NCBI GenBank assembly: GCA_030592635.1
Contig: JAUVIS010000003.1
Span: 1-46,353, forward strand
From: Candidatus Fermentibacteraceae bacterium
GTDB taxonomy: Bacteria; Fermentibacterota; Fermentibacteria; Fermentibacterales; JCC-6
Direction of reading: 5' to 3'
DNA: 46,353 bases
Shown here: piece after piece, positions 20-21,191 of the stretch
How the letters are laid out: every line of letters begins with the position of its first letter
How positions within the stretch are numbered: position 1 is the first letter of the stretch
The notes under the pieces: generated by a model
The model's input: only the letters and a program-made list of their open reading frames with translations
Told to the model about the DNA's origin: nothing
The model's database searches: none
Program-made: the position numbers and the translations under genes

Positions 20-1513
20 TTACGGCAACCTGTGATGAATCCGAACAAGTTTCTCTGTCGCGCTCCTGTAAGCAGACCTGGCATACAGCAGGTAAACACC
101 GCCCGCTACCGGAGATCCACTGCTGTCGCAACCGTTCCACACAACACTGTGGTCACCTTCAGGCTGCACGCCGTCAATCAGAGAACAGACCATTCTTCCG
201 GTTATATCGTAGATCTCCAGAGATACGGGAAAACAACTCTCGTCCGCAGCAACAGAGAAACTGATCAGGGCCGTGGAAAGCATAGGATTCGGCGCAAAAG
301 ACAAGGGGATTGACCCCGTATCAGGGTTTTCAAGGGCATTCTCCGCTATACCGGCAGTTCCAAGAAGACCATCAATTATCCAGATGGTTGAAGAGGTTGA
401 GCAGAGCACTCCCACTTTGTTGTCAGGACCCAGAACCGTGAGGTAATTGGGTTGAGCATCCACAGGATAACGGGGCATGAACTGCTGCCCTGTGGACACA
501 TCGAAAGTGTAGATGTAATTACCGGGGTAGATCGCTGGAAACGCAGCTCTGCTGCCATCAGCGCTGAACGCGACTGTGGCACTTCCCTGCGGAGCAACTG
601 TTTCGCCAAAATTCGCATTCGAGATTAATGTCATCTGCGTCGGATCACTGACATCTATAAAACTCAACCCGCGGGAGTAGAGACAGGAAACGCTATTTCC
701 GCAGATAGCAACAGTGCCGCCAAGCTGCTGAGTTCCAAATACAATTCCGTCTGGATCAAGCAGCTCAAGATCTATGACATCAAAGGAATACAGAACGCGT
801 TCATTCGTTGAGATGAAACCGGTTCTACAGTCGTCCGCGAAAACAATATTGTTGTTTGATGAGAAGGTAAATGGTTGCGGCAGCGGAATACTCCCTGCTA
901 TGAGCATATTGGCCGGGTCGGAAACATCCACCACCATAATAGCATCATCACTGCATCCGGCAATGGCAATACGATCACCGGCAATAGCAATCTCATACGG
1001 GTTCGCAGGAAGACAAAGGCCATCCGGATCAACAAGACCCGTGGTCTGCACACTGAAGGAATGCAATTTATCATCGGTGAAAGATGTAATGTAACCGGTC
1101 TCCCCATCTGAATCCATAGCAACATTCTGACCTGAAATACAGCTGTTTGAATCCAGCGGAATCAGAACAACCTCCTGAAGCTGAGCGGGATCTGTAATAT
1201 CCACAATCAGAATTCCCCAGTACGAGTCCTCCGACTCGAAGTTACCCGGTATTGCCATAAGTGAATCAGTAAAAATGTAGAGATCCGAACACGGCCCGGG
1301 CACAACCAGTCCGTCCGGGTCAATCAAATCTCCGCTGGCAGGATCGAATGACCAGAGAATACAATCGTCGAAGCTTGCCACAAAACCTGTCGCCCCGCTT
1401 ATTATGAATGTGGAATTCTGATAGAAATAAGATGGTGGAGGCGGATCAAATACCACCGCAGTCTGGGCGGAGGCGAGGGAAAGACTCAAAAGAACAGTTG
1501 TTACCTGCTTCAT
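20..1513 (-). CDS. Secreted beta-propeller-like repeat protein with C-terminal FlgD-Ig/T9SS-like sorting domain
   Basis: Signal peptide MKQVTTVLLSLSLASA/Q; internal repeats (SF....L.DPDG x3, VD.SDP x3); C-terminal FAPNP...SLEIYDITGRMV..L.....G.H.VVWNG.D..G..V..GVY signature. Confidence 0.75.
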   Translation of the reverse strand: MKQVTTVLLSLSLASAQTAVVFDPPPPSYFYQNSTFIISGATGFVASFDDCILWSFDPASGDLIDPDGLVVPGPCSDLYIFTDSLMAIPGNFESEDSYWGILIVDITDPAQLQEVVLIPLDSNSCISGQNVAMDSDGETGYITSFTDDKLHSFSVQTTGLVDPDGLCLPANPYEIAIAGDRIAIAGCSDDAIMVVDVSDPANMLIAGSIPLPQPFTFSSNNNIVFADDCRTGFISTNERVLYSFDVIDLELLDPDGIVFGTQQLGGTVAICGNSVSCLYSRGLSFIDVSDPTQMTLISNANFGETVAPQGSATVAFSADGSRAAFPAIYPGNYIYTFDVSTGQQFMPRYPVDAQPNYLTVLGPDNKVGVLCSTSSTIWIIDGLLGTAGIAENALENPDTGSIPLSFAPNPMLSTALISFSVAADESCFPVSLEIYDITGRMVCSLIDGVQPEGDHSVVWNGCDSSGSPVAGGVYLLYARSAYRSATEKLVRIHHRLP

Positions 1514-8143: not shown

Positions 8144-10189
8144 ATGAAAAAACCTATATTCATTATTGCCGGTATATCCACTCTGCTTTCAATGGCACTC
8201 ACACTCAGCAGCTTTGACCAGGGGCTTGAGCATCTCACTCTGGATCTCAGGTTCAACCTTTTTCCGGATACTCATTCCGTAAATGACAGCATAATAATTA
8301 TAAGTGTGGATAACGCATCTCTGGAATCCATGGACTGGCTGGGATGGCCGTGGCCCAGGCAGATATGGTCCGACATGACAACCTTCCTCTATGATGCCGG
8401 TGTGAAAGTCGTCTACTTTGATATTACCTTTTCCACAAGTTCAACCTTCTCCGCAAGCGAAGACAGCGTATTCGGCGCAGTGGCAGGAAGCGGCAGTACA
8501 GTTTTTATCACCGGACTGGGTCACGACGAAGGCCAGCCAATACCGGAGAACGCAGTTATTAATCTTCAACTGCCACCCGGAAGAACTGCTCCATTCAGAT
8601 TTGCTTCACCCCCGGTGTCTCATATAGCGGCAGGAGCCAGTTATCTTGCTTCACCGTATGCTTTCCCCGACCCGGATGGAATGTTCAGGCAGACCCCTCT
8701 GTTTTTTCCCTCGGAAACCGGTACAGTTCCCTCACCGGCACTGGCCATAGCAATGCTCTTCAGGGATAATCATTCTGTTTCACTCGAAGATGGAACACTG
8801 CTCTGGAACAGCACCAGGATACCCCTTACAGAAGACTATGAAATGCAGGTCAGATTCGCAGGTCCGACAGGCAGCTACAGAACAATCAGCGTTGCGGATG
8901 TTTTTTCAGCAATGACCGGTGACACAACAGCTCTTCAACCGTCATCCCTGGCTGGAAAAATCGCAATGATCGGCTACACGGCATCGGATCTAATGGATCT
9001 GAAACCAATGCCCTACTCCGCCAGATGCCCCGGTGTTGAAGTAATCGCAAACACTCTTGGCAATATCCTTCAGGGCAGACATCTGGCAACTCATGGCTTG
9101 ATGACAACACTGTTTCTTACAGTTTTCCTCAGTCTTGCAGTGGCCTCAGCCCTGGTCTTCATTCCCAGGGTAATACCGGCATCGCTTACAGGATTGTCTG
9201 CAATTCTCGCCTATGCGGCAGTTTGTCTCGTCGCTTTCAACTACCGGGATCTGTGGCTCACAGCAGTGCCGCCTCTTACCTCCGGCATGCTTACTCTGCT
9301 TGGCGGTTCGGTAATCGCTTATCAGTTCGCCACAAAAGATAAAAAGTTTTTAAAAGCCGCCTTTTCACAATACCTCTCTCCCGCTATCGTATCTCTGGTG
9401 GCAAAAAACCCCGAGTTGCTGAAACTCGGCGGCGAGAAAAAAGTAATGACTGCCTTCTTCAGCGATGTAGCGGGATTTACCACCATAAGCGAACAGCTTG
9501 ATCCTCAAGATCTTGTGAAGCTTCTCAACATCTATCTTACGGAAATGACTGACATTATCCTTGAATCCGGCGGAACCGTGGACAAGTTCGAGGGAGACGC
9601 GATAATTGCCTTCTGGGGTGCTCCTGTAGAGCTTGAAGATCATGCGCTGAGGGCAGTAACCTCCGCCCTTGAATGTCAAAAGATACACAGGGAACTCAAC
9701 ACGCGACTCAAGGAAATGAATTTCCCGGCACTCAGCACAAGAATTGGTCTTGCCAGCGGCTCTATGGTAGTTGGAAACATGGGCAGCAGCAAACGGTTCG
9801 ACTACACAATGATGGGCACTGATGTAAATCTGGCAAGCCGTCTTGAGGGAGTCAACAAAGTCTATGGAACACCAATCCTCATATCGAACAGCACCCGGGA
9901 ATTCCTTCCCGCAAGTGTTATCTGCCGGGAAATTGACACTGTTATGGTTATGGGTCAGAAAACACCGGTTACCATCTGGGAACCGGTGCTGAAACTGCCG
10001 GTATTCGCAGAGCAGTACAGCAAAGCGTTGAAACTCTACAGAAACGGAAATTTCCAGTCTGCTCTGAAATTGTTCATGGAAATTCCAGAGGATCCACCAT
10101 CCGGAACCATGGCAGCAAGATGCAGAGGGTTCATCGATAAAGGAACTCCACTGAATTGGAGAGGAACCTGGGTTCTGACATCCAAGTAG
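8144..10189 (+). CDS. CHASE2-domain membrane class III adenylate cyclase
   Basis: WPWPR and PGVE CHASE2 motifs, 3 TM helices, FSDVAGFT / DKFEGDA / YTMMGTDVNLASRLE catalytic motifs (Lys/Thr indicate ATP specificity). Confidence 0.93.
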   Translation: MKKPIFIIAGISTLLSMALTLSSFDQGLEHLTLDLRFNLFPDTHSVNDSIIIISVDNASLESMDWLGWPWPRQIWSDMTTFLYDAGVKVVYFDITFSTSSTFSASEDSVFGAVAGSGSTVFITGLGHDEGQPIPENAVINLQLPPGRTAPFRFASPPVSHIAAGASYLASPYAFPDPDGMFRQTPLFFPSETGTVPSPALAIAMLFRDNHSVSLEDGTLLWNSTRIPLTEDYEMQVRFAGPTGSYRTISVADVFSAMTGDTTALQPSSLAGKIAMIGYTASDLMDLKPMPYSARCPGVEVIANTLGNILQGRHLATHGLMTTLFLTVFLSLAVASALVFIPRVIPASLTGLSAILAYAAVCLVAFNYRDLWLTAVPPLTSGMLTLLGGSVIAYQFATKDKKFLKAAFSQYLSPAIVSLVAKNPELLKLGGEKKVMTAFFSDVAGFTTISEQLDPQDLVKLLNIYLTEMTDIILESGGTVDKFEGDAIIAFWGAPVELEDHALRAVTSALECQKIHRELNTRLKEMNFPALSTRIGLASGSMVVGNMGSSKRFDYTMMGTDVNLASRLEGVNKVYGTPILISNSTREFLPASVICREIDTVMVMGQKTPVTIWEPVLKLPVFAEQYSKALKLYRNGNFQSALKLFMEIPEDPPSGTMAARCRGFIDKGTPLNWRGTWVLTSK

Positions 10190-10243
10190 CATCTTTACTT
10201 ATATTTACACATGCTTTGAATTGTGAATAAACAAGGAGGAACG

Positions 10244-10732
10244 ATGAGATTTTTAATTGTCCTCGTGACGATTCTTGCGGGAAGCGCAGTCGCCGGGGAT
10301 ACAGATATTGAAGTTGGTGGAAACGCCACTGTAAAGATCCGCGAGCAGCACATTTTTCCTACTCCGGTTTTCTATGCTCAGCCGGTTGGAGAACTTGCTT
10401 TCGGCTCTGTTGTAGAGATTACCGGAGAACAGGGTGACTGGTACAGCATTGAGGCCGATAATGGAATTAATGGCTGGGTTCATACAACCGCGTTAACCGG
10501 AGCTGTCCTTTCACAGGGCTCTCAAGGCACCGATGACAGCGACTTGATAATGCTTGCCGGTCGAGGGTTCAATGATGATGTTGAGAGCTCATATGCTGAA
10601 GGTAAGACTCTCCCCTGGGATGAAGTTGATGCCATAGAAGATATTACTGTGGAACCGGCAGTTCTTGAGGTTTTCCTGGTTGAAGGTCTTCTTCTCAAGA
10701 ACCTTCCTCCCGAAGAAGGAGGAAGACGATGA
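10244..10732 (+). CDS. Secreted SH3-domain protein
   Basis: Signal peptide; GDWY.I....G..GWVH bacterial SH3; LAGRGFN motif; AGGAGG RBS before ATG 10244. Confidence 0.8.
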   Translation: MRFLIVLVTILAGSAVAGDTDIEVGGNATVKIREQHIFPTPVFYAQPVGELAFGSVVEITGEQGDWYSIEADNGINGWVHTTALTGAVLSQGSQGTDDSDLIMLAGRGFNDDVESSYAEGKTLPWDEVDAIEDITVEPAVLEVFLVEGLLLKNLPPEEGGRR

Positions 10733-11688
10733 TCGCAATTCTGCTGATCACAATGACTGCTTTCGGTCTTGGAGACATTACGGATGTTCTGGGAAGCGAT
10801 GAGCTTGAAAGCGCTGTTACTGTCTACCAGGCTTTTGACGAAGCCAACCGCGAGATTACTGAAACGGAAGAATACTACATAGGCAGGGCTGTAGCAGCCA
10901 ACATACTTGCTTCATCAACACCCATGTTCGACTGGGATGCCGTGTTCTATGTAAACGAAGTGGGAGCGGTTATTGCCGGTTTTTCTCCAAAACCCTTCAC
11001 CTACGGTGGGTGGCACTTCATGATTCTTGACGATCAGGGCATCAATGCTCTGTCGTGCCCCGGTGGAATAGTTCTTCTCAACAAAGGTCTCTGTGATCTT
11101 GCGGTAAATGAGGATGAACTGGCGGCAATACTGGCCCACGAAGCTGCCCACATTGCCCTGAGTCATGGAATTCAATCTGTCGAAAAAGCAAAGTTTTCAT
11201 CAGCCTGGACAACGCTTGGCCATGAAGGCGCACAGCACCTGGGCAGCGACGATGTACAGGAGCTTTCTGAAAACTACGGCGATGTTGTAGACGACATCAC
11301 AATGAACCTTGTCACACGAGGTTACAGCCGCGATTCCGAGCAGCAGGCCGACAGCCTCGCTGTCCATATTCTGGCCAGTGCAGGATACGATCCAATGGCA
11401 CTTGTAACGCTGCTGAACAGAATGGATGAACTTACAGAAACGAGCGGGCCGGGCTTCTGGCAGACACACCCTGCTCCTTCCGACAGAGTCCAGTGGATCA
11501 TGGATGAAATTGAGAACAGCTCTCTGGCTTCGCCCCCCTCAGGAGAAATTGCTGTAAGAACAGCGAGGTTCGCTGAAAGATACACAAACGCAGACATAAC
11601 CCAGCCCACCGAAACATCCCGCAGAACAAGCTCCGGAAGTACCGATACAGAATCCGGTGGCCGAGCATCTTCAGGAGGCAGACGGTAA
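10729..11688 (+). CDS. M48 family metallopeptidase
   Basis: INALSCPGG, LAHEAAH zinc motif, YSRDSE..AD, THP....R. Confidence 0.92.
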   Translation: MIAILLITMTAFGLGDITDVLGSDELESAVTVYQAFDEANREITETEEYYIGRAVAANILASSTPMFDWDAVFYVNEVGAVIAGFSPKPFTYGGWHFMILDDQGINALSCPGGIVLLNKGLCDLAVNEDELAAILAHEAAHIALSHGIQSVEKAKFSSAWTTLGHEGAQHLGSDDVQELSENYGDVVDDITMNLVTRGYSRDSEQQADSLAVHILASAGYDPMALVTLLNRMDELTETSGPGFWQTHPAPSDRVQWIMDEIENSSLASPPSGEIAVRTARFAERYTNADITQPTETSRRTSSGSTDTESGGRASSGGRR

Positions 11689-11735
11689 TCTTTCCTCTGC
11701 TTCTTCTGCTTTCAGCCGCGCCCGGTGTCACGGGG

Positions 11736-12380
11736 ATGGTTCCCCACGACCCGGGCGCTTTTACTCAGGGGCTTGAAATCAGATGCGGCTTTCTCTGGGA
11801 AAGCACCGGCACTTACGGTCGATCCACATTCAGGAAAACCGATATGGAGACCGGAGAGGTTCTGGATTTACTCCGGCTTCCAGACACCGTTTTCGCGGAA
11901 GGATTTACCTTTCTGGACGACTCCACAGTATGCCTTCTAACCTGGAAAGAGCATACAGCATTCCTGCTGAATCCCTGGACAATGGAGATAGAGGATGAAT
12001 TCTATCTGAATACAGAGGGCTGGGGTATCTGCCGCACGGGTGAGTTTCTTGCACAAAGTGACGGCACAGCTGTCCTGCGTTTCAGAGACACAGGTGATTT
12101 CTCAATTCGTGATTCCATATCCGTCACCCTCAACGGCGAACCTCAGTTCTTTCTTAACGAGCTGGAATACCTTAACGGACAGATACTTGCAAATCAGTGG
12201 CGCACAGGCAGGATTCTTTTCATAAATCCGGAAAACGGTCATGTAGAGCGGGTTCTCAATCTCCGTGATGTAATTCCCCGATCCGGTGGTGTCCTTAACG
12301 GAATTGCAGCAGGTGAAGATGAAACTCTCTACTGCACAGGGAAGAACTGGCCGATTACTCTGATTCTGGATAACCTGTAG
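11736..12380 (+). CDS. Glutaminyl-peptide cyclotransferase (type I, beta-propeller)
   Basis: PHDP.AFTQGL, ESTG.YG.S, FAEG, LTWK, EGWG, LNELE, VLNGIA, TGKNW; true start probably upstream of 11736. Confidence 0.9.
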   Translation: MVPHDPGAFTQGLEIRCGFLWESTGTYGRSTFRKTDMETGEVLDLLRLPDTVFAEGFTFLDDSTVCLLTWKEHTAFLLNPWTMEIEDEFYLNTEGWGICRTGEFLAQSDGTAVLRFRDTGDFSIRDSISVTLNGEPQFFLNELEYLNGQILANQWRTGRILFINPENGHVERVLNLRDVIPRSGGVLNGIAAGEDETLYCTGKNWPITLILDNL

Positions 12381-12480: not shown

Positions 12481-13458
12481 ATGCCTAAACTACTGTTTGT
12501 TCTGCTTATCATTGCAACCGCTGCTTCAGCAAAATGGATTACCTCAACAATCGACTCCCCTGACGGAGATATATCAGGTCTCGCCTGGGGTGATGGTCAT
12601 CTGTGGGCAATGGATTCTGTTTCAGACAGCGTCTACAAGCTTGACCCGGCAACTGGCGACATTATCAGCAGTTTCTACTTCAACCATGCTGCAACAACGG
12701 TTCCTACCGGGCTTGCCTACTCCGAGAATCACAATATGGTGCTGTGCGGCGGCTGGTACATCTCCAACGGCTATGTATACAAATACTCTCCCACCGGTTC
12801 ATATCTGGGCATGGTGAACATGTGCGGCGGTTGAGGAAACCCTGTCTCGTCGGTGACGGGACTAAGCGTCAGCGGAAACTATCTCTTTCTTTCCTCCAGA
12901 TCACAGAAAAGAGTTTACCGGTACACACTTCCAGGTATAACCGGCAGACAGCTCCTTCTGTACATGCCTGCTTTCAATAAAACATGTGATATTGCCTTTA
13001 ATGCCGAAGACTCTCTTACATGGGCAGCCTCGGAAACCAGTGACCCTGCTGTCAAATGCTTTAATACTGAAAACGAAATGGTTGACTACATCAATATCAG
13101 CCTTATTCCAAATGCAAGAGGAATGACTCTTGATCCGGCGGGATTCCTCTGGATAAGCGACATTGATGCAGACAAAATTTATCAAGTCGATCTCTCTAAT
13201 GGTATCGAGGATGGCAACCAGCCCCCGGCAGGGCTGAATGTTATTCCCTCTTCAAATCCTTTCAGTGGCGCAGTTACCATTCAGGCACCGGGAATCCACG
13301 CTGAAATAACGGTGATTGATATGTATGGACGCCAGATAGAACATGACACTTTCCAGGAAAGCTGGACCTGGAATTCTTCAGCCCCGGCCGGCAACTACCT
13401 CTTTATCATCAAAGATGATCAGGGAGTATCTGCGATTCTGGACATGGTAAAGATTTAA
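12481..13458 (+). CDS. Putative secreted beta-propeller selenoprotein, paralog 1 (325 aa, CGGU, Sec118), C-terminal FlgD/T9SS-like domain
   Basis: ORFs 12481-12834 and 12853-13458 are in the same frame across TGA 12832-12834 (..MCGG*GNPVSSVTGL..); signal peptide only in the first part, sorting-like domain (NPF....I.......VIDMYGR) only in the second; SECIS-like hairpin follows. Confidence 0.8.
12844..12862 (+). promoter_or_regulatory. Bacterial SECIS-like hairpin 1
   Basis: Stem GTCTCGTC/GACGGGAC (8 bp, one G-U) with GGT loop starting 17 nt after the TGA. Confidence 0.7.
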
Positions 13459-13472
13459 CTGACTTCCCTCGG

Positions 13473-13507
13473 GAAACACCGGAGTATCTGCCCCGGTGTT
13501 TCTTTTT
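13473..13507 (+). terminator. Intrinsic terminator after paralog 1
   Basis: GAAACACCGG/CCGGTGTTTC stem followed by TTTTT. Confidence 0.85.
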
Positions 13508-13580
13508 GCGGTATTCTACATCCTTATTCCGGATTTCCGCGTTTCTGGTAACGAAGTCCCTGAAACGGGGCACACTGGCC

Positions 13581-13609
13581 TTGCCGCGTTTCTGGAAACT
13601 CTGTATCTT
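13581..13609 (+). promoter_or_regulatory. Sigma70-like promoter of paralog 2 with a palindrome in its spacer
   Basis: TTGCCG-17 nt-TATCTT; the spacer contains GTTTC-TG-GAAAC (13588-13599). Confidence 0.5.
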
Positions 13610-13661
13610 TCAAGTATCTTTCCCGCAATTGAGAATTTAATCGAATTCAAGGAGGTGCGCT

Positions 13662-14639
13662 GTGCGCAAAGTACTGCTGGTACTGCTTGTTATAGCAGCC
13701 GCAGCATCGGCCAAGGCAATAATAGCAACCCTGGATGCCCCTGATACCAACATATCCGGTCTTGCATGGGGTGAAGGTTCCCTTTGGGCTATGGATGCTG
13801 TTACTGATTATGTGTATGAACTTGATCCTGCGACAGGTGATGTGATCAACAGTTTCTACTTCGATCATATCACCACGATAGTTCCCACCGGCCTCGCCTA
13901 CTCCGAGAACCACAACATGGTTCTCTGCGGTGGCTGGTATAGTACTACCGGCTATGTTTTCAAGTACAGTCCCACCGGCTCATATCTGGGCATGGTGAAC
14001 ATGTGCGGCGGTTGAGGAAACCCTGTCTCGTCGGTGACGGGACTAAGCGCAAGCGGCAACTATGTTTTCCTCGGCTCAAGAAACCAGAATAGAGTTTACT
14101 ACTACACCCTTCCGGGAGTTAGCACAAGAAAAGACTTCACTTACATGACCGGGTTCGGTGCTACATGCGACATTGCAATGAATGCGGCAGACAGCCTTGT
14201 CTGGGTCGCTTCCGAAAATACAGGCCTGGCGGTAAAGTGCTATGATACCAACAATACAATGGTCGATTACATCAATGTGAGCCTGATACCAAACGCCAGG
14301 GGAATGGCTCTTGATCCCAGCGGCTATCTCTGGATCAGTGATATTGATGCCGACAAGATCTATCAGGTCGATCTTTCTGAAGGCATAGAGGAGGGCGATC
14401 AGGGCACTGAAGGATTCTCCGTTGTCCCCTCCGCCAACCCCTTCAGCGGTGCTGTTACATTCCAGGCACCCGGCGTGAATGCAACTGTTACCGTATTCGA
14501 TATGTATGGCCGTCAGGTTGAAAACGACAACTTCCAGGAATCCTGGACATGGAACTCTTCCGCCCCTGCGGGAAGCTACATATTCGTCATCACAGATGAT
14601 CAGGGAGAGTCAACAACCCTTGAATTGATGAAGATCTAG
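13662..14639 (+). CDS. Putative secreted beta-propeller selenoprotein, paralog 2 (325 aa, CGGU, Sec118), C-terminal FlgD/T9SS-like domain
   Basis: ORFs 13662-14015 and 14034-14639 are in frame across TGA 14013-14015; AAGGAGG RBS and GTG start; colinear with paralog 1. Confidence 0.8.
14025..14043 (+). promoter_or_regulatory. Bacterial SECIS-like hairpin 2
   Basis: Identical to hairpin 1 at the same spacing from the TGA. Confidence 0.7.
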
Positions 14640-14657: not shown

Positions 14658-14687
14658 GAAAACCCGGAGTTCAATCTCCGGGTTTTC
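14658..14687 (+). terminator. Intrinsic terminator after paralog 2
   Basis: GAAAACCCGGAG-TTCAAT-CTCCGGGTTTTC perfect 12-bp stem. Confidence 0.85.
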
Positions 14688-14734: not shown

Positions 14735-14810
14735 GCCTCGATAGCTCAGTTGGCAGAGCGGGTGGCTGTTAACCACTAGGTCGGAGGTTCAAGTCCTCCT
14801 CGAGGCGCCA
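14735..14810 (+). tRNA. tRNA-Asn(GTT)
   Basis: 76-nt cloverleaf: acceptor GCCTCGA/TCGAGGC, D arm GCTC/GAGC, anticodon loop CT-GTT-AA, T loop TTCAAGT, encoded CCA; TTGACA at 14690 upstream. Confidence 0.97.
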
Positions 14811-14980: not shown

Positions 14981-15259
14981 TCATGTTGCCTTCATCAGCC
15001 CGAGTTCAGAATCCAATCTTTCAGCAAGATACACCTTCAATAATGATTGATACGGAATATCCTTCTTGTTTGCCAGGAGCTTCAGCTCTTCGATCATGGA
15101 CTCCGGCAATCTGAGGGAAATTGTTTTTGTTGAAGGTTTGAGTTTAGAGAGGGTTACTCGCTCTGCACTCTTCCAGTCCAGATATTCTGCTGAATCGTGG
15201 GTCTGCCAGAACTGTCGTTCCTCTTCTTCTGTCTTAAAGCCGGGTATTTCTTTTTTCAT
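14981..15259 (-). CDS. BrnA-family (CopG/RHH-like) antitoxin
   Basis: IP.FKTEEEER.FW.THDS.EY, ISLRLP...I..LK..A....IPYQSLLK. Confidence 0.88.
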   Translation of the reverse strand: MKKEIPGFKTEEEERQFWQTHDSAEYLDWKSAERVTLSKLKPSTKTISLRLPESMIEELKLLANKKDIPYQSLLKVYLAERLDSELGLMKAT

Positions 15260-15558
15260 TATTGAAACCTTCGTTCTTCTGTTTGTGTCATGTCCCTTGC
15301 CGATATGATCCTGATCAGCTGGCTTCTGATAACGAAGACAACAAAAAGCATCCTGTTCATATCGGTCTGTCCCAGCACATAAAACCGAGGTTCATGTTCC
15401 GAATGTGAGCTATCCCTTTGCAGAACAAACGGACGGTTAAAGAACACCTGCTCACATTCTGACCGGGTAACACAATGCTTTTTCCAGTTCTTCACTGCAT
15501 TGCCTTCATCCCGTTCGAATCCAATACAATCCCTGAGCATATCTCTTGGTTTAACCAT
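15259..15558 (-). CDS. BrnT-family ribonuclease toxin
   Basis: FExDEGN..KN..KH.V...E.EQVF, HS..E.R..VLG, IRIISAR; stop overlaps the antitoxin start. Confidence 0.9.
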   Translation of the reverse strand: MVKPRDMLRDCIGFERDEGNAVKNWKKHCVTRSECEQVFFNRPFVLQRDSSHSEHEPRFYVLGQTDMNRMLFVVFVIRSQLIRIISARDMTQTEERRFQ

Positions 15559-16011: not shown

Positions 16012-17436
16012 CTACAACTTCACTACCATGGTCGTAGCAATTGCTCCCGCGCATGAACCACTAATGTTGTAGCCACCCGCAGGAAGTTCATTGCCTTCAG
16101 AGTCACAACCATCCCAGAGAAAAGTATTACCACTGCTGCTGGAAATAGTCCTGACAATTCGCCCTGAAAAATCGTAGACCTCCAGTTGAGCTGGTACAAC
16201 AACTCCCTGAACGGCGATAGTTACGCTCTCAGAAAAAGGATTAGCAGAACTCTGAAGAACAAAAGGGTCAGTGTCAACAGGGGATGTACTTGATTCCTCA
16301 ACCTCGACCCAGTCGTGGTCGAACCAGCCCATGACTATCCAGTACCCGCTGACTTCTACATCTCCCTGGCTCCAGATAGCAAAAACATCACCATCATCAT
16401 TCGTAGCAGCTTCAAGACTGGCAATCTGCTGAACTTCCTCATCACTGTAGTCATAGGCTGCGTATGGTTCTTCAATGAAGTTGCCATTCTTATCTATTAT
16501 GGCAAAATAGACATAGTGATCACTCTGGAAATAAGCCAGCCACATCAGGTACAGAGTGTCTCCATCAGGTCCAGGGAGAATATTCATATACCAAGCACCA
16601 AGATTGGGCATCTCAACCTCTTTTATAACCAGTACATCACCAGTTTCAGAATCAACCTTGACTAAAGAAAGAACACTATAGGGGATTCCTTCTCTCGAAT
16701 AATAAAAGAAACACCAAAAATTGCCATCAACATCGACAGTAACAGATGTAGTCGGACGAAAGAAATCAAGTCCCTGAACCAGTTCAACAGGTGGTATCAC
16801 GATGTTACCTTCAAGATCATACTGAATGTAGGCGGGAAGAGCAAAACCGGCAAGGTAAACCACATGCACCCTGTTACCATCAACACAGATATTTGAGATA
16901 TCATCCAGGCTACCTGGAACTGTGTCTCTGAATACCTCACCAACTCCAGGCTCGAACACTGCGTAGCAGACCCCACCGGAAATCTCAAAGGAAGCATGTA
17001 TACGCCCAAGACTGTCACTGGAAGCTTCCACTCTTGGGCGACTCACATAGGAATCGGGGATCAGAAGGCTGGTGGGTACAAGTTCTGCACCAGAGCTGTC
17101 CCGAATAGTGTGCCAGGCGGGAGCCCCTTCTCTCCAGAACAAAGCAACACTATCCTCATTCACCAAACAGCTGGTGGTATAGCCTGACCATACCTGATTG
17201 GAAATCATAGTCTCCGGAAAAATAACTGTGCCGTCTGAGAGATAAACCTTGTAACCTACCCTTGTCTCCTGATTGAGATATCCCCATACCTGATGCAGCG
17301 TGTCAGTACCTGTAACTTGAATGGATTTGTGCTGCTGGCTGCTGTATGACCAAAGATCCTCAGTGATTATAGGATCGCTCCACCCTGGGGCATGGGTCAT
17401 CAGAAACAAGCCGGACAAAATCATCGACGGTAACAT
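16012..17436 (-). CDS. Secreted protein with C-terminal FlgD/T9SS-like domain
   Basis: Hydrophobic N-terminus, beta-rich repeats, ANPFSE.V.I.......LEVYDFSGRIVRT......WDG.D..G..LPAG.Y. Confidence 0.75.
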   Translation of the reverse strand: MLPSMILSGLFLMTHAPGWSDPIITEDLWSYSSQQHKSIQVTGTDTLHQVWGYLNQETRVGYKVYLSDGTVIFPETMISNQVWSGYTTSCLVNEDSVALFWREGAPAWHTIRDSSGAELVPTSLLIPDSYVSRPRVEASSDSLGRIHASFEISGGVCYAVFEPGVGEVFRDTVPGSLDDISNICVDGNRVHVVYLAGFALPAYIQYDLEGNIVIPPVELVQGLDFFRPTTSVTVDVDGNFWCFFYYSREGIPYSVLSLVKVDSETGDVLVIKEVEMPNLGAWYMNILPGPDGDTLYLMWLAYFQSDHYVYFAIIDKNGNFIEEPYAAYDYSDEEVQQIASLEAATNDDGDVFAIWSQGDVEVSGYWIVMGWFDHDWVEVEESSTSPVDTDPFVLQSSANPFSESVTIAVQGVVVPAQLEVYDFSGRIVRTISSSSGNTFLWDGCDSEGNELPAGGYNISGSCAGAIATTMVVKL

Positions 17437-20400
17437 TAATCCTCCTCCAGAACTCCTGTTCTTGCAGCGTCATGCTGACACTGGGGCCATGGAGCATAAC
17501 CCGGTATACATCTGCCAAGTTCCCAGATATGAATGTAATTGTCCATGGTTCCAAAGACAACCTCTACCCTGCCGTCATTATCAATGTCGGCTATTACAAA
17601 ACCGCCCTGAACTGATGCAGGGAGGGTGTAGGGGAAACCAAGATTAGCCAGTGGTTCACTTGAACTGGAAATTCCAAAAACTACACCCTCTCGACTGGCT
17701 GTGATTACATCCGCATGTTCAAACAAATCATGATCATCCAGTTCACCAAGTGCGGGGAAGGGGGGCTTGCCTTCACCGGCAGAAGAATATTCAAAAGGAT
17801 AATTGTCCATATGAAACCCACCCTCATCCCACGCAAAGCACTGGTTTTCAGTATTGGCGATAATTCTGTCGGGACCTGGTGTCAGTGCTTCCCAGTCAGC
17901 CACAATGCAGTATGGAACATGGTTGGAGTTAAGACCGGGGTTGCTCTGACAGCTGGCAGTTGTTGTCAGATCTCCGGGATCAAGCAGTAACGCAGGAGAA
18001 TGGGTTGAAGTTGCCTGATCTGTGGGCATTGAAATTAGCTGCCCCTGAGGCAGAGTTCCAACTGCGGGAACAGTTCTCCAGGGAACACCTGACCAGTCCC
18101 TCTCTGAAGGGAACGAATCGGCATCGTAATCATACACAAAGCACTTTGAATTCTGTTGCATGAATTCATTCCAGTGGAGATTTACAATAATCTCCAAGCT
18201 GCCGGCACCGTTCAGATCCTCAAGTAATGGCCAGCTTGAGATCGTATTTGCATTTGCCGGGATGCCTGGTAATTGGACTGTTCTAATTGGTACAAGGGCA
18301 TCATTAACTATGTCGAAGACATAGATATCCCTACCGCGGGAAAGCACTATCTCATCCCTCTGTTCAAAACCTGCCTCATCCACAAAATCAGCCAGCGCAA
18401 CAGTATGATTCCCTTGCCAGAACCATTCGCCGGAATGTGTGTAACTGCAGATCGGCTCAGTCGAAGTTCTATCAAAGATCATCAGTTCATCCCGACCATC
18501 AACGATTATCTCTGAAAGACCGTTCCCTGCCACATTCCCGGTAACAGGTATGCTCGGATAGATATCTATTCCCTGGGGGGTGTAGAAGAACGGGTAAGGA
18601 TCGGATCCCCATACAGGTGCTCCCGGGGAATCACTCCGGAAAACACATATCTGACTTTCTGTAGCAATAACAATCTCCAGATACCCATCACCATCAAAAT
18701 CAAAAAGAACCGGCGGTACTATTATGGAATGTGCCGTTTGAGTTGGCCAGCCTGATTCATTGGGATAAAAGTCCAGTATATCCAGACTCGTTGCTGCTGA
18801 ATTGTTCGACATCCACGAATCAGGAGCAAGACCGCCGGGATCTACTGCGGATGCTGTCAGAAACAATGTTCCCGGAGGTGTGAACCAAGTGTTATTCCAC
18901 CGAAACTCCAGTGTTGTTTCATCACCTGCTGAAAGCCCTGAGCATTGCGCTGTGATAATATCGGGGATACTGTTGCCATCTGTCACCTCCATAGTAACCA
19001 CAAAGGGACCTGCGTCCTGCCAGCCTGCATTCCTGACAGTTACATAAATGACTGCCTGTCTTGATCCATTATTACTTATTGTGGGATAACTGTTTGTCTC
19101 AATGTCTGCAGAACTGATGATCAGATCGCAGCAGTTCCGGAACTTCATTCTGTCACCAATGTCTGCTGCAGGGTCTCCCAGCAGGTTAAACTGGGCTAAT
19201 CCCCTCAGTCCATAATTGGTGGATGTGAAAACATCAAGATGTTGAAGTCTCGCTGAAAGAATGGCATCTCCCATTCTTGTAATACCTCTTTCAAATACGG
19301 CAGTCAGTATCCCCTTTCCATAGTATTTGTAGATGTAAATGTATGAGGAGTTAGATCCGGCGAACACACCAATGGCTCCACACTCTGTGTGCTTTATGAA
19401 ATCTTCCGCAAGACAGTCAGTGGAAAAATCGTATGGAGGTGAAGCATTGTTATCGTAGCACAGGCACTGCCAGGTATTTATGCTCTCATGCTCAACTGCG
19501 GTGTGATTGAATGTTCCAGCAGTACAGCACAACATAAGTACAAATGGTGTCCAGTGATCCGGGTCAGGAGTAAGTGCCAGTACATCAAGGTTATTAAATG
19601 TAGAGTCCGGTACACCAAAGTTTTCTTCCTGCCAGTTCAGACCTGCTGAAAACATGTGGAAATCTCCATGATCGGAATAGAACGCGATCTGCGACCCTCG
19701 TTCAAATACGGTGTTGCAGGCATTCACCCAGTCTGCACTGGTCATGCTGCTGCCATCCGGATTTGGAGGATCAGTGTTGAATGTGTTCTCGCCGTCACCG
19801 CAGTAATAATTATCCCACTCATAACCCATCCATGTGCGGAGGGAGTCGATCCAGCCAGCTGAAGGTTTCCAATCGTCGTATGTAAATGCACCACTGTGAT
19901 CTGTACCGGCAAGCCGTGTGATTCGCCTGCGGTTAATCAGATTTCCCGGGTAGGGAGGTACTGCCTCTGACTCATATGACTCAATCAGATTGAACATGTT
20001 CTGGAGAGTCTCGATCTCTGTTACCGGGAGTCTGCCGACTATCATGTCTGGGAGACCGGAGATAACCTCTCTCGGTTCGTCGAAAAGAACAAACCACTCG
20101 TCGTTGCCGTACCCGTAATGTGAAAGGTATTCCATTGTAGGCAGGCAGTAGGTGTATGTGGTACAGCCTGGATCATCATGATCACCAATCAGAAGAAGGT
20201 AAGTTGGTCTGTCACCCGGACTACCCCAACTCCAGAGAGCTTCCGTGTAGTCTCGAATGATATCGGGACTTATAAAATAGTAATCAGAAGTTCCGTACCC
20301 CTCTATAATATCTGCAATATTTGCTATCAGTACATCGAAGCCGTTCAGAGAAGCCCGGTACGCTGCGAAATCGTCTACAAAGGTTCCATCAAGCCCCGGA

Positions 20401-21191
20401 GCGACAATTATCACATAGTCCGGTACAAAGGGTGGCGGATCCAGAGTGTCCTCGTGCCTGAACACACTTCCTGCGGGTAGCCCCATTGGAATCGGATCCG
20501 GGTCGGGTTCATACCCGATCAGCCTGTCATCAATGATCTGATCGTAATAGCCAAGCCCAGCCTGGTTCCAGACCGGATCTGTACCCTGGAAATTGACTTT
20601 TACTTCAATATCACTCCACACCCTCAACCTGTTTTCAGAAGCAAGGAACTGAACCGGGTACACATCAACTATCGCAACCCGCTGATCACGGAGTCTGAAC
20701 TCTCCTGATATTTCAGCGGTTACAGAAGGATACCATTCTAAAGAGGAATATGCTGCTGGATTCTTCTCGAAGAATTCATCTATGTATGTGATTCCCTGCT
20801 CATGAACCAGACTGTCATAAGGAGCCGGGCAGACTGGAAGACATGCAATCGTTTCTTCACAGGATGCGGAAAAAGAAAGATCAAGATCAACTCCATCAGG
20901 CACCGCGACGAAACAGGTTACAAACGGTACTTCAGGATAACCTGTTACATCCATGGGTACCGTTCCAGGACTTTGATTAAATCTGAGATATTGGGTACTG
21001 TCATGTGTCAGTGTCTCGGACAGAAGACCTTGCAGTTCAACATCAAAGGAGATGTAATCCGGTGCGGTTATCCCGTGTCTGACCAATGGAGAAGCCCCGG
21101 AAGGGCAGCCTGCATTAAATTCAAGCCAGTCGGCATAACACAATCCTGCAAACACCAGCAGAACTATCAGGAGCAATCCGAACTTCCTCAT
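17436..21191 (-). CDS. C25 (gingipain-like) cysteine peptidase with propeptide, CARDB-like and FG-GAP-like domains
   Basis: G.PEVP propeptide, DYVII, YLLLIGD, VGRLPV, catalytic SDHG and CCTAGTF, FNLLGDP; DFDGDG/DIDNDG repeats. Confidence 0.85.
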   Translation of the reverse strand: MRKFGLLLIVLLVFAGLCYADWLEFNAGCPSGASPLVRHGITAPDYISFDVELQGLLSETLTHDSTQYLRFNQSPGTVPMDVTGYPEVPFVTCFVAVPDGVDLDLSFSASCEETIACLPVCPAPYDSLVHEQGITYIDEFFEKNPAAYSSLEWYPSVTAEISGEFRLRDQRVAIVDVYPVQFLASENRLRVWSDIEVKVNFQGTDPVWNQAGLGYYDQIIDDRLIGYEPDPDPIPMGLPAGSVFRHEDTLDPPPFVPDYVIIVAPGLDGTFVDDFAAYRASLNGFDVLIANIADIIEGYGTSDYYFISPDIIRDYTEALWSWGSPGDRPTYLLLIGDHDDPGCTTYTYCLPTMEYLSHYGYGNDEWFVLFDEPREVISGLPDMIVGRLPVTEIETLQNMFNLIESYESEAVPPYPGNLINRRRITRLAGTDHSGAFTYDDWKPSAGWIDSLRTWMGYEWDNYYCGDGENTFNTDPPNPDGSSMTSADWVNACNTVFERGSQIAFYSDHGDFHMFSAGLNWQEENFGVPDSTFNNLDVLALTPDPDHWTPFVLMLCCTAGTFNHTAVEHESINTWQCLCYDNNASPPYDFSTDCLAEDFIKHTECGAIGVFAGSNSSYIYIYKYYGKGILTAVFERGITRMGDAILSARLQHLDVFTSTNYGLRGLAQFNLLGDPAADIGDRMKFRNCCDLIISSADIETNSYPTISNNGSRQAVIYVTVRNAGWQDAGPFVVTMEVTDGNSIPDIITAQCSGLSAGDETTLEFRWNNTWFTPPGTLFLTASAVDPGGLAPDSWMSNNSAATSLDILDFYPNESGWPTQTAHSIIVPPVLFDFDGDGYLEIVIATESQICVFRSDSPGAPVWGSDPYPFFYTPQGIDIYPSIPVTGNVAGNGLSEIIVDGRDELMIFDRTSTEPICSYTHSGEWFWQGNHTVALADFVDEAGFEQRDEIVLSRGRDIYVFDIVNDALVPIRTVQLPGIPANANTISSWPLLEDLNGAGSLEIIVNLHWNEFMQQNSKCFVYDYDADSFPSERDWSGVPWRTVPAVGTLPQGQLISMPTDQATSTHSPALLLDPGDLTTTASCQSNPGLNSNHVPYCIVADWEALTPGPDRIIANTENQCFAWDEGGFHMDNYPFEYSSAGEGKPPFPALGELDDHDLFEHADVITASREGVVFGISSSSEPLANLGFPYTLPASVQGGFVIADIDNDGRVEVVFGTMDNYIHIWELGRCIPGYAPWPQCQHDAARTGVLEED

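Follow-up and report, generated by a model that had tools for sequence, protein, structure and literature searches.

Probable selenoprotein genes with a predicted propeller and a sorting domain recur across Candidatus Fermentibacteria

Introduction

Four short open reading frames (ORFs), lying in pairs at positions 12,481 to 14,639 of a contig from a Candidatus Fermentibacteraceae bacterium, raise a simple question: do they encode four proteins, or are they two genes in each of which a TGA codon for selenocysteine (Sec, U) has been taken for a stop? The stretch concerned (GenBank assembly GCA_030592635.1, contig JAUVIS010000003.1, positions 1 to 46,353, forward strand) is 46,353 nucleotides (nt) long and hereafter called the window. 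An initial annotation had proposed that the region holds two selenoprotein genes split by annotation pipelines, each with a signal peptide, a propeller, and a tail resembling the sorting domains of the type IX secretion system (T9SS). We find this proposal supported by conservation of the TGA, covariation in a putative selenocysteine insertion sequence (SECIS), presence of tRNA-Sec, selA, and selB, purifying selection, and a predicted propeller that spans the TGA. That the window holds genuine selenoprotein genes is, we judge, highly probable.

The great majority of known bacterial selenoproteins are redox enzymes of the cytoplasm or periplasm, mostly thioredoxin-like, with usually one or a few genes per family. 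The DNA studied here comes from cold-seep metagenomes of sulfidic sediment, and the hosts are strict anaerobes, described as living by obligate fermentation and as having few defences against oxidative stress (bioRxiv 10.1101/146886).

Four annotated ORFs form two colinear frames

Under translation table 11, the region contains four ORFs (12427/12481-12834, 12853-13458, 13662-14015, and 14034-14639). At NCBI, the downstream piece of 201 amino acids (aa) is named 'T9SS type A sorting domain-containing protein' or 'hypothetical protein', and the 117-aa upstream pieces stand as separate proteins. Reading TGA as U turns the four ORFs into two colinear frames, each with a single recoded codon:

12481..13458, plus strand: selenoprotein gene copy 1 (predicted); ATG start, 325 codons, U118, normal stop; annotated elsewhere as two ORFs
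12832..12834, plus strand: putative Sec codon TGA of copy 1, codon 118
13662..14639, plus strand: selenoprotein gene copy 2 (predicted); GTG start with AGGAGG 6 nt upstream, 325 codons, U118, normal stop
14013..14015, plus strand: putative Sec codon TGA of copy 2, codon 118

Two colinear 978-nt frames with one TGA at codon 118, about 70% identical in protein sequence, are what the initial annotation had described; both points hold, with 325 codons per frame and 72% protein identity between the copies. The TGA context is the same in both, ..GMVNMCGG-U-GNPVSSVTGL.., and a DNA block of 70 nt around it (12799-12868 = 13980-14049) is 100% identical between copies; outside this block, the synonymous divergence (dS) is ~1.8-2.5, that is, saturated. 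For the downstream ORFs, the nominal GTG starts (12853 and 14034) had been placed in a hairpin loop, which proved accurate in that each GTG takes its first two bases from the end of the loop and its third from the start of the 3′ stem. Upstream of GTG 12853 and GTG 14034 we found no AGGAGG-like site.

The TGA is conserved throughout the phylum and flanked by sequence under purifying selection

Across the closest relatives, TGA at codon 118 is the only internal stop in 17/17 copies (from the window and from 13 further loci in Ca. Sabulitectum and Fermentibacteraceae metagenome-assembled genomes), well past what chance would give; the count leaves out L026:1-159, a C-terminal fragment ending short of codon 118. 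Using the protein as query against the phylum (Ca. Fermentibacteria/Sabulitectum; 70 genomes from 14 genera and 3 families; threshold E<=1e-8), we obtained 245 matches distributed over 70/70 genomes, with up to 10 per genome. The best E value was 4e-27 or better in 67/70 genomes, while G021, G065, and G067 gave weak matches only. The tandem pair proposed at the outset is thus real, yet it is no isolated oddity but part of a phylum-wide multi-copy family.

An in-frame TGA is present in 149 of the 150 matches listed, the exception being a fragment limited to residues 210-325, which lie past the site. The 95 weaker matches beyond these probably include Sec-less paralogues like the two in the window's own genome (see below). 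In all 55 distinct TGA contexts (55/55), a Cys occupies position -1 or -3 relative to the TGA. The ratio of nonsynonymous to synonymous substitution rates (dN/dS) is 0.08-0.16 on each side of the TGA, and in a comparison with contigs of four DNA runs, those from other metagenome samples that cover the TGA of copy 2, albeit patchily, show no listed difference there, with 182 further differences unlisted. The case that had been made against a pseudogene or sequencing error is borne out by these data: the TGA stands in all listed copies that span the site, and selection is purifying on both sides of it. TGA also terminates 12/32 long ORFs in the window, and a change of the genetic code is therefore not indicated.

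Other metagenome runs of that study contain several contigs whose flanks are unrelated and which match the window at 12819-12863 only, a ~45-nt core comprising the TGA and the hairpin described below; in X2, depth at this core is 23 as compared to ~4 beside it. This pattern fits many paralogues or species having the invariant SECIS core. As for the family outside the phylum, a search of two other-phylum sets, one genome each, gave no result.

A hairpin of the bacterial SECIS type follows the TGA

Each TGA is followed by a hairpin of identical sequence in the two copies, GUCUCGUC-GGU-GACGGGAC, which begins 9 nt 3′ of the UGA and places the loop 17 nt from it:

12844..12862, plus strand: candidate SECIS hairpin of copy 1; 8-bp stem, GGU loop; 74.8 bits with a covariance model (R1)
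14025..14043, plus strand: candidate SECIS hairpin of copy 2; -9.8 kcal/mol alone; 1/200 shuffles equally stable

The published model of the bacterial SECIS (bSECIS), as given in PMC13188914, comprises a stem of 4-16 bp and a loop of 3-9 nt that has a G within its first two positions, a UGA-to-loop distance of 16-37 nt, and a minimum free energy of <= -7.5 kcal/mol. With its GGU loop, 8 bp, 17 nt, and -9.8 kcal/mol, the hairpin of the window copies agrees with this model throughout.

Inside the window's subfamily, the hairpin is invariant. Among 27 distinct sequences, codons 120-127 each use a single codon (27/27), P121 with its two codons excepted; the synonymous entropy over this stretch is 0.32 bits versus 1.25 bits at other conserved degenerate codons, the second lowest of 112 stretches. 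Because of this invariance, covariation in the stem can only come from more distant paralogues. We aligned 31 of the 55 distinct TGA contexts, picked across the identity range, and found 90.7% of stem cells paired, versus 79.3% in shuffles and 36-68% with slid partners. Compensatory double changes occur in 5/8 stem pairs, one of which appears as CG, AU, GC, and UA, and the covariation score was equalled by 0/500 shuffles. The RNAalifold consensus retains only the four innermost shared pairs. A search of the window's own genome with model R1 returned the four family members only; the model is therefore family-specific and silent on other SECIS elements.

tRNA-Sec, selA, and selB are encoded in the assembly, and selD in most genomes searched

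The assembly that contains the window (89% complete, 235 contigs) carries a tRNA-Sec (70.4 bits; called SeC with anticodon tca by ARAGORN) as well as selA (496 bits) and an adjoining selB (322 bits), both over cut-off. The gene selD was not found in this assembly; in a search of 31 genomes, the window's own (G000) and 30 relatives, it is over cut-off in 28. Across relatives G001-G060, selD mostly has an in-frame TGA of its own and often occurs twice per genome. With respect to other selenoproteins, a search of the 89%-complete assembly gave no FdhA over cut-off and no GrdB; the GrdB negative shows little because the same search matched no control genome either.

The family shares a vicinal Cys-Sec pair and includes Sec-less relatives

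Other subfamilies place the recoded codon in the contexts ..FTVxC-U-GSQLSSVTG.., ..FDLDC-U-GSDLDQxVTG.., and ..YC-U-GS..YSSVTG... The family-wide motif in these sequences is a predicted vicinal Cys-Sec (C-U), with CGGU marking one subfamily. The claim that the window encodes CxxU selenoproteins thus describes the CGGU of the two window copies well but does not extend to the family, whose motif is the vicinal pair.

Four predicted Sec copies exist in the window's own genome. Besides the two window copies, there is one on C182, and C25 holds a partial one. Two further paralogues in that genome (C154 and C83) lack Sec; each has one Cys, whose alignment with the Sec column is ambiguous. In three full-length homologues without Sec, P0047, P0058, and P0059, there is no Cys at the site either.

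Some paralogues, with or without Sec, lack a T9SS domain and end instead in ..[ST][WF]GxIKxxF-COOH. We saw this tail in G000:C182:619-1422 (L091), L100:223-1014 (-), L101:245-982 (-), P0047, and P0059. This short, conserved tail may represent a different sorting or anchoring signal.

Putative export signals flank a predicted propeller that spans the TGA

Both predicted proteins begin with a signal peptide, read by eye from a basic n-region, a hydrophobic core, and an A-S-A site, and end in ~70 residues homologous to T9SS sorting domains:

12481..12531, plus strand: signal peptide of copy 1, MPKLLFVLLIIATAASA, with an A-x-A cleavage site, read by eye
13255..13455, plus strand: T9SS type A sorting domain of copy 1 (TIGR04183, 19.3-21.7 bits, below the cut-off of 23)
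13662..13712, plus strand: signal peptide of copy 2, MRKVLLVLLVIAAAASA, with cleavage before K (MRKVLLVLLVIAAAASA|K), read by eye
14436..14636, plus strand: T9SS type A sorting domain of copy 2 (TIGR04183, 29.2-31.9 bits, cut-off 23)

The Pfam sorting-domain model PF18962 stayed below cut-off in both copies. A family profile built from 39 sequences matches the solved T9SS C-terminal domains (CTDs) of gingipain and PorZ (5hfs, 5ag8, 7pq4, and 5m11). The genome encodes SprA (402 bits summed, over cut-off) and has 75 CTD matches, of which 71 are over cut-off. We consider it likely that the proteins are exported through the T9SS.

Between these signals, predicted propeller repeats occupy residues ~20-245, with the TGA inside them, between blades 2 and 3. 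The profile matches the designed Pizza6 propellers (E 6e-16), the NHL propeller of Brat (3.5e-6), and TRIM71 (2e-4). On the window proteins themselves, the only Pfam match was to DUF6923, at cut-off (27.5 and 26.3 bits versus 27), and the Pfam NHL model gave none. The blades are ~40 residues long and follow the pattern xxG(L/I)A...LWV(S/A)D...IY; they probably number five, not six. Giant NHL-repeat proteins align through the Sec site with neither Cys nor Sec. No thioredoxin-type family was matched around the motif in Pfam or NCBIfam, the motif lying inside propeller repeats. The Sec is located ~8 residues N-terminal of the xTGL strand that opens blade 3, and by general propeller topology such a loop would be the D-to-A loop, on the channel face.

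A second propeller family carries a similar hairpin

A scan of the window's own genome for coding frames joined by TGA was crude, giving 94 candidates that are mostly false, of which we examined the one on C48. This gene, G000:C48:5202-6413 (-) = L108:403-1614 (-), with relatives L109-L120, encodes a predicted selenoprotein of 404 residues (P0198) with a signal peptide, four FG-GAP repeats (87 bits), and a T9SS CTD (32 bits). Its U99 is found in the context ..LPSG-U-C-TGATNPQV... The UGA is again followed by a hairpin with a GGU loop, and among 13 distinct sequences the stem shows a compensatory change from G-C to A-U. Matches to this FG-GAP family occur in 62/70 genomes, 179 in total, and 146 of the 150 matches listed carry the TGA; of the four listed that do not, two span the site and read ET and DC there.

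The FG-GAP family is unrelated to the NHL-like family. An unrelated family with the same GGU loop strengthens the reading of the hairpin as a SECIS, and the two families together suggest a general theme of T9SS-sorted propeller selenoproteins. NHL-type and FG-GAP-type genes lie side by side in three genomes (G012:C166:2803-5150, G017:C168:29715-32064, and G069:C16:38217-41723), an arrangement that may indicate shared function.

Gene neighborhood

Upstream of the tandem pair lie two genes that recur with the CGGU subfamily:

10729..11688, plus strand: M48 peptidase gene, conserved second upstream neighbor
11736..12380, plus strand: glutamine cyclotransferase gene (Glu_cyclase_2, 215 bits), conserved upstream neighbor of the CGGU subfamily

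The order M48 peptidase, glutamine cyclotransferase, CGGU selenoprotein (window 10729-12380, loci L020-L062) is found again in same-genus loci and in loci whose protein is only 44-52% identical to that of the window. As called, the cyclotransferase ORF begins at profile position 33 and has no signal peptide. Two possible ties between the neighbors were rejected: homology of the selenoprotein to the cyclotransferase (hhalign probability 1.2%), and action of the cyclase on the selenoprotein N terminus, given that mature CGGU-subfamily proteins begin with K, N, or H, not Q. Among the neighborhoods of six other paralogues, three were annotated (L102, L106, and L107); they contain MutS, a heptosyltransferase, an MsbA-like ABC transporter, glycosyltransferases, an inositol monophosphatase, and a C25 peptidase.

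Further observations concern the rest of the window. A CHASE2-adenylate/guanylate cyclase gene and an SH3-domain gene (8144-10732, +) precede the M48 gene on the same strand. Directly 3′ of copy 2 is a tRNA-Asn (GTT) at 14735-14810 (+), and between the two lies a hairpin (14658-14687) that a scan for terminator-like structures picked on the minus strand only. Two overlapping ORFs at 14981-15558 (-), of 92 and 99 aa, resemble by eye what we take to be an antitoxin-toxin pair of the BrnA/BrnT type. Other likely T9SS cargo is encoded at 16012-21191 (-) and 20-1513 (-), namely a gingipain-like peptidase of family C25 (1251 aa), which has CARDB and FG-GAP repeats, and two other proteins with FlgD_ig-type C-terminal domains, one having LVIVD repeats.

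Weighing the alternatives

Taken whole, these data are best explained by each gene encoding one selenoprotein of 325 residues, and this is very probably the case. Were the TGA a true stop, each locus would instead yield a 117-aa secreted protein plus a 201-aa T9SS-tailed protein started at the internal GTG. Gene callers and NCBI do report these pieces as separate proteins, and TGA is an ordinary terminator elsewhere in the window. However, the 201-aa piece has neither a signal peptide nor a ribosome-binding site and its GTG sits within a stable hairpin; every listed copy, across 14 genera, keeps the two pieces colinear and in the same frame; the match to the propeller profile continues over the junction, as do the full-length homologues without Sec (P0047, P0058, and P0059); and the 21 nt from TGA to GTG are conserved as coding sequence. 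A true stop is very improbable in the face of this. Decaying pseudogenes or an assembly error at the TGA, for which the internal stop itself is the sole argument, have a negligible chance of being the answer, with the same codon in all listed site-spanning copies from 70 independently assembled genomes, dN/dS of 0.08-0.16 on both sides at saturated dS, and other-sample contigs that run over the site without a listed difference (182 further differences unlisted). It is improbable, too, that UGA118 is read through by a near-cognate Trp, Cys, or Arg or under a variant code, with the hairpin merely stimulatory. Hairpins of that kind exist in other systems, selenium in the protein is predicted from sequence, and selD was not found in the window's own assembly. 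Yet the hairpin at hand fits the SelB-type bSECIS model, with a G-rich apical loop at the right distance; tRNA-Sec, selA, and selB are present, with selD in most of the genomes searched; a Cys always stands at -1 or -3 of the UGA, as in known redox or metal selenoproteins; and the many long ORFs of the window that end in TGA speak against a code change.

Several points weigh against the selenoprotein interpretation or parts of it. Of the Sec machinery that the initial annotation had suggested looking for, tRNA-Sec, selA, and selB were recovered whereas selD is missing from the 89%-complete assembly, though it was found in 28/31 genomes searched. A search for homologues with either TGA or Cys at the site had also been suggested; TGA is there in all listed site-spanning matches, but no clear Cys-for-Sec orthologue was seen among the homologues examined, which is unusual for selenoproteins, the Sec-less relatives either lacking the pair or having one ambiguously aligned Cys. 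The covariation signal comes only from distant paralogues, the sequences are related, and the hairpin sits in coding sequence, where amino-acid constraint contributes to its conservation. As to export, the CTD of copy 1 scores below cut-off, yet it is homologous to that of copy 2 across the domain, and the PorU-like (374 bits versus a cut-off of 420) and PorV-like (122 bits versus 250) matches are likewise below cut-off. We infer from topology and blade register that the Cys/Sec loop would lie on the propeller face that surrounds the central channel. In the window and in the L102, L106, and L107 neighborhoods, no redox or metal partner gene recurs. Finally, Sec insertion at UGA118 is a prediction from sequence.

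A model for synthesis, export, and function

For the selenoprotein interpretation, we propose the following course of events. Translation would start at ATG 12481 or GTG 13662. The hairpin 9 nt past UGA118, having the form of a bacterial SECIS, would be bound by SelB together with Sec-tRNA(Sec), so that Sec is inserted and the ribosome continues for 207 codons in the same frame; under selenium shortage, only the 117-residue N-terminal fragment would be made. Judging from the domains, the protein would then be exported by the general secretory translocon via its N-terminal signal peptide, residues ~20-245 would fold as an NHL-like beta-propeller whose third blade starts just past the Sec, and the C-terminal type A domain would pass the protein to the T9SS, to be released or attached at the surface. 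The loop leading to the innermost strand of blade 3 would carry Cys115 and Sec118, whose counterpart in most paralogues is a vicinal Cys-Sec. There, the pair could form a selenenylsulfide or selenolate-thiolate site for extracellular redox chemistry, or for the capture of soft metals or chalcogens, in a strict anaerobe. Such a surface function in redox chemistry or in soft-metal and chalcogen binding is what the motif and its predicted setting suggest.

Between these two functions, redox chemistry has the spacing of the window's subfamily on its side: CxxU is a classic and common redox spacing, and CGGU conforms to it. The pair may instead be a ligand site for soft metals or metalloids (Hg, Cu, As, and Zn) or for sulfur or selenium, which would make the protein a surface propeller for binding or scavenging. 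The habitat, a sulfidic cold-seep sediment, would suit this role, and Sec-less paralogues retain the scaffold, from which a binding platform is suggested; no metal-resistance or transport genes lie nearby, however. A vicinal CU is listed for families whose names point to metals or organometals: the MerB-like SaoL, HgcA, CopZ-family form 2, and the metal-binding MbdU (PMC13188914, Table 1). We regard the ligand role as quite possible, if short of probable.

Going further, Ca. Fermentibacteria might possess an extracellular, T9SS-delivered selenoproteome. The NHL-like and FG-GAP propeller families, unrelated and both multi-copy, would be at least two of its components (~6 matches per genome together), each with a vicinal Cys/Sec on the propeller face. 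Whether as selenoenzymes or as selenium-based capture proteins, they could be the first to be secreted, acting outside the cell on sulfur or selenium species, disulfides, or soft metals. The two families could also be the main reason why the phylum keeps its Sec machinery, an idea that draws on FdhA not being over cut-off and GrdB not being found in the 89%-complete assembly. We put this picture forward as speculative and, as a whole, rather doubtful.

Comparison with known systems

The recoding mechanism itself is textbook; the novelty lies in the fold and destination of the protein, in its copy number, and in its spread through the phylum. NCBIfam models applied to P0001, P0002, two distant paralogues, and P0198 matched the CTD alone, and no selenoprotein model was among the matches. 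We found no literature linking the phylum or the T9SS to selenoproteins, and no T9SS cargo with Sec. No propeller, NHL, FG-GAP, or T9SS-sorted family is among the 119 families and subfamilies in Table 1 of a 2026 review (PMC13188914); the supplementary tables BSepDB Table S2 and deep-Sep Table S2 might add families. The word 'propeller' does not appear in PMC13188914, PMC12013277, or PMC13326102. The remark in the initial annotation that repeat-propeller selenoproteins have been reported found no counterpart among published work we located, nor in that Table 1.

Many copies of two propeller selenoprotein families appear to be present throughout a phylum of strict anaerobes from sediments and digesters. 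The proteins are apparently sent to the surface by the T9SS, and all such genes are split or truncated in public annotation. If our interpretation is true, several hundred gene models would be corrected, the catalogue of selenoprotein families would be enlarged, and selenocysteine would be in use outside the cell in sulfidic habitats. It would also provide a defined peptide and RNA hairpin for a direct test of Sec insertion in an uncultured phylum.

With selenoprotein genes of the E. coli fdhF type, the window genes share a UGA, a small apical loop that starts with G 17 nt on, a folding energy below -7.5 kcal/mol, and tRNA-Sec, SelA, and SelB; they differ from known bacterial selenoprotein genes in lacking a thioredoxin fold and in being multi-copy, with up to 10 matches per genome. 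Animal thioredoxin reductase has a C-terminal Gly-Cys-Sec-Gly redox center, and a vicinal Cys-Sec can form a selenenylsulfide. The vicinal Cys-Sec followed by Gly is similar to the ..C-U-G-S.. of most paralogues, whereas the pair predicted here is internal, placed in a propeller loop of an exported protein with no flavin domain, and reads C-G-G-U in the window's subfamily. Matches of the family profile connect these proteins to the NHL propellers of Brat, TRIM71, and the PknD-derived Pizza designs, relative to which the Sec-bearing loop would be an innovation. The type A CTD is that of T9SS cargo such as gingipain RgpB and PorZ, although the host phylum is not Bacteroidota. Selenoproteins in which Sec lies outside the cytoplasm are also listed in Table 1 of PMC13188914, namely the TonB-dependent receptor of the FCYXU type, which is likewise a CxxU protein, a barrel of the MtrB/PioB family, and the ExtKL cytochrome; these are barrels and cytochromes with no T9SS sorting domain, and their route of secretion presumably differs from the one proposed here.

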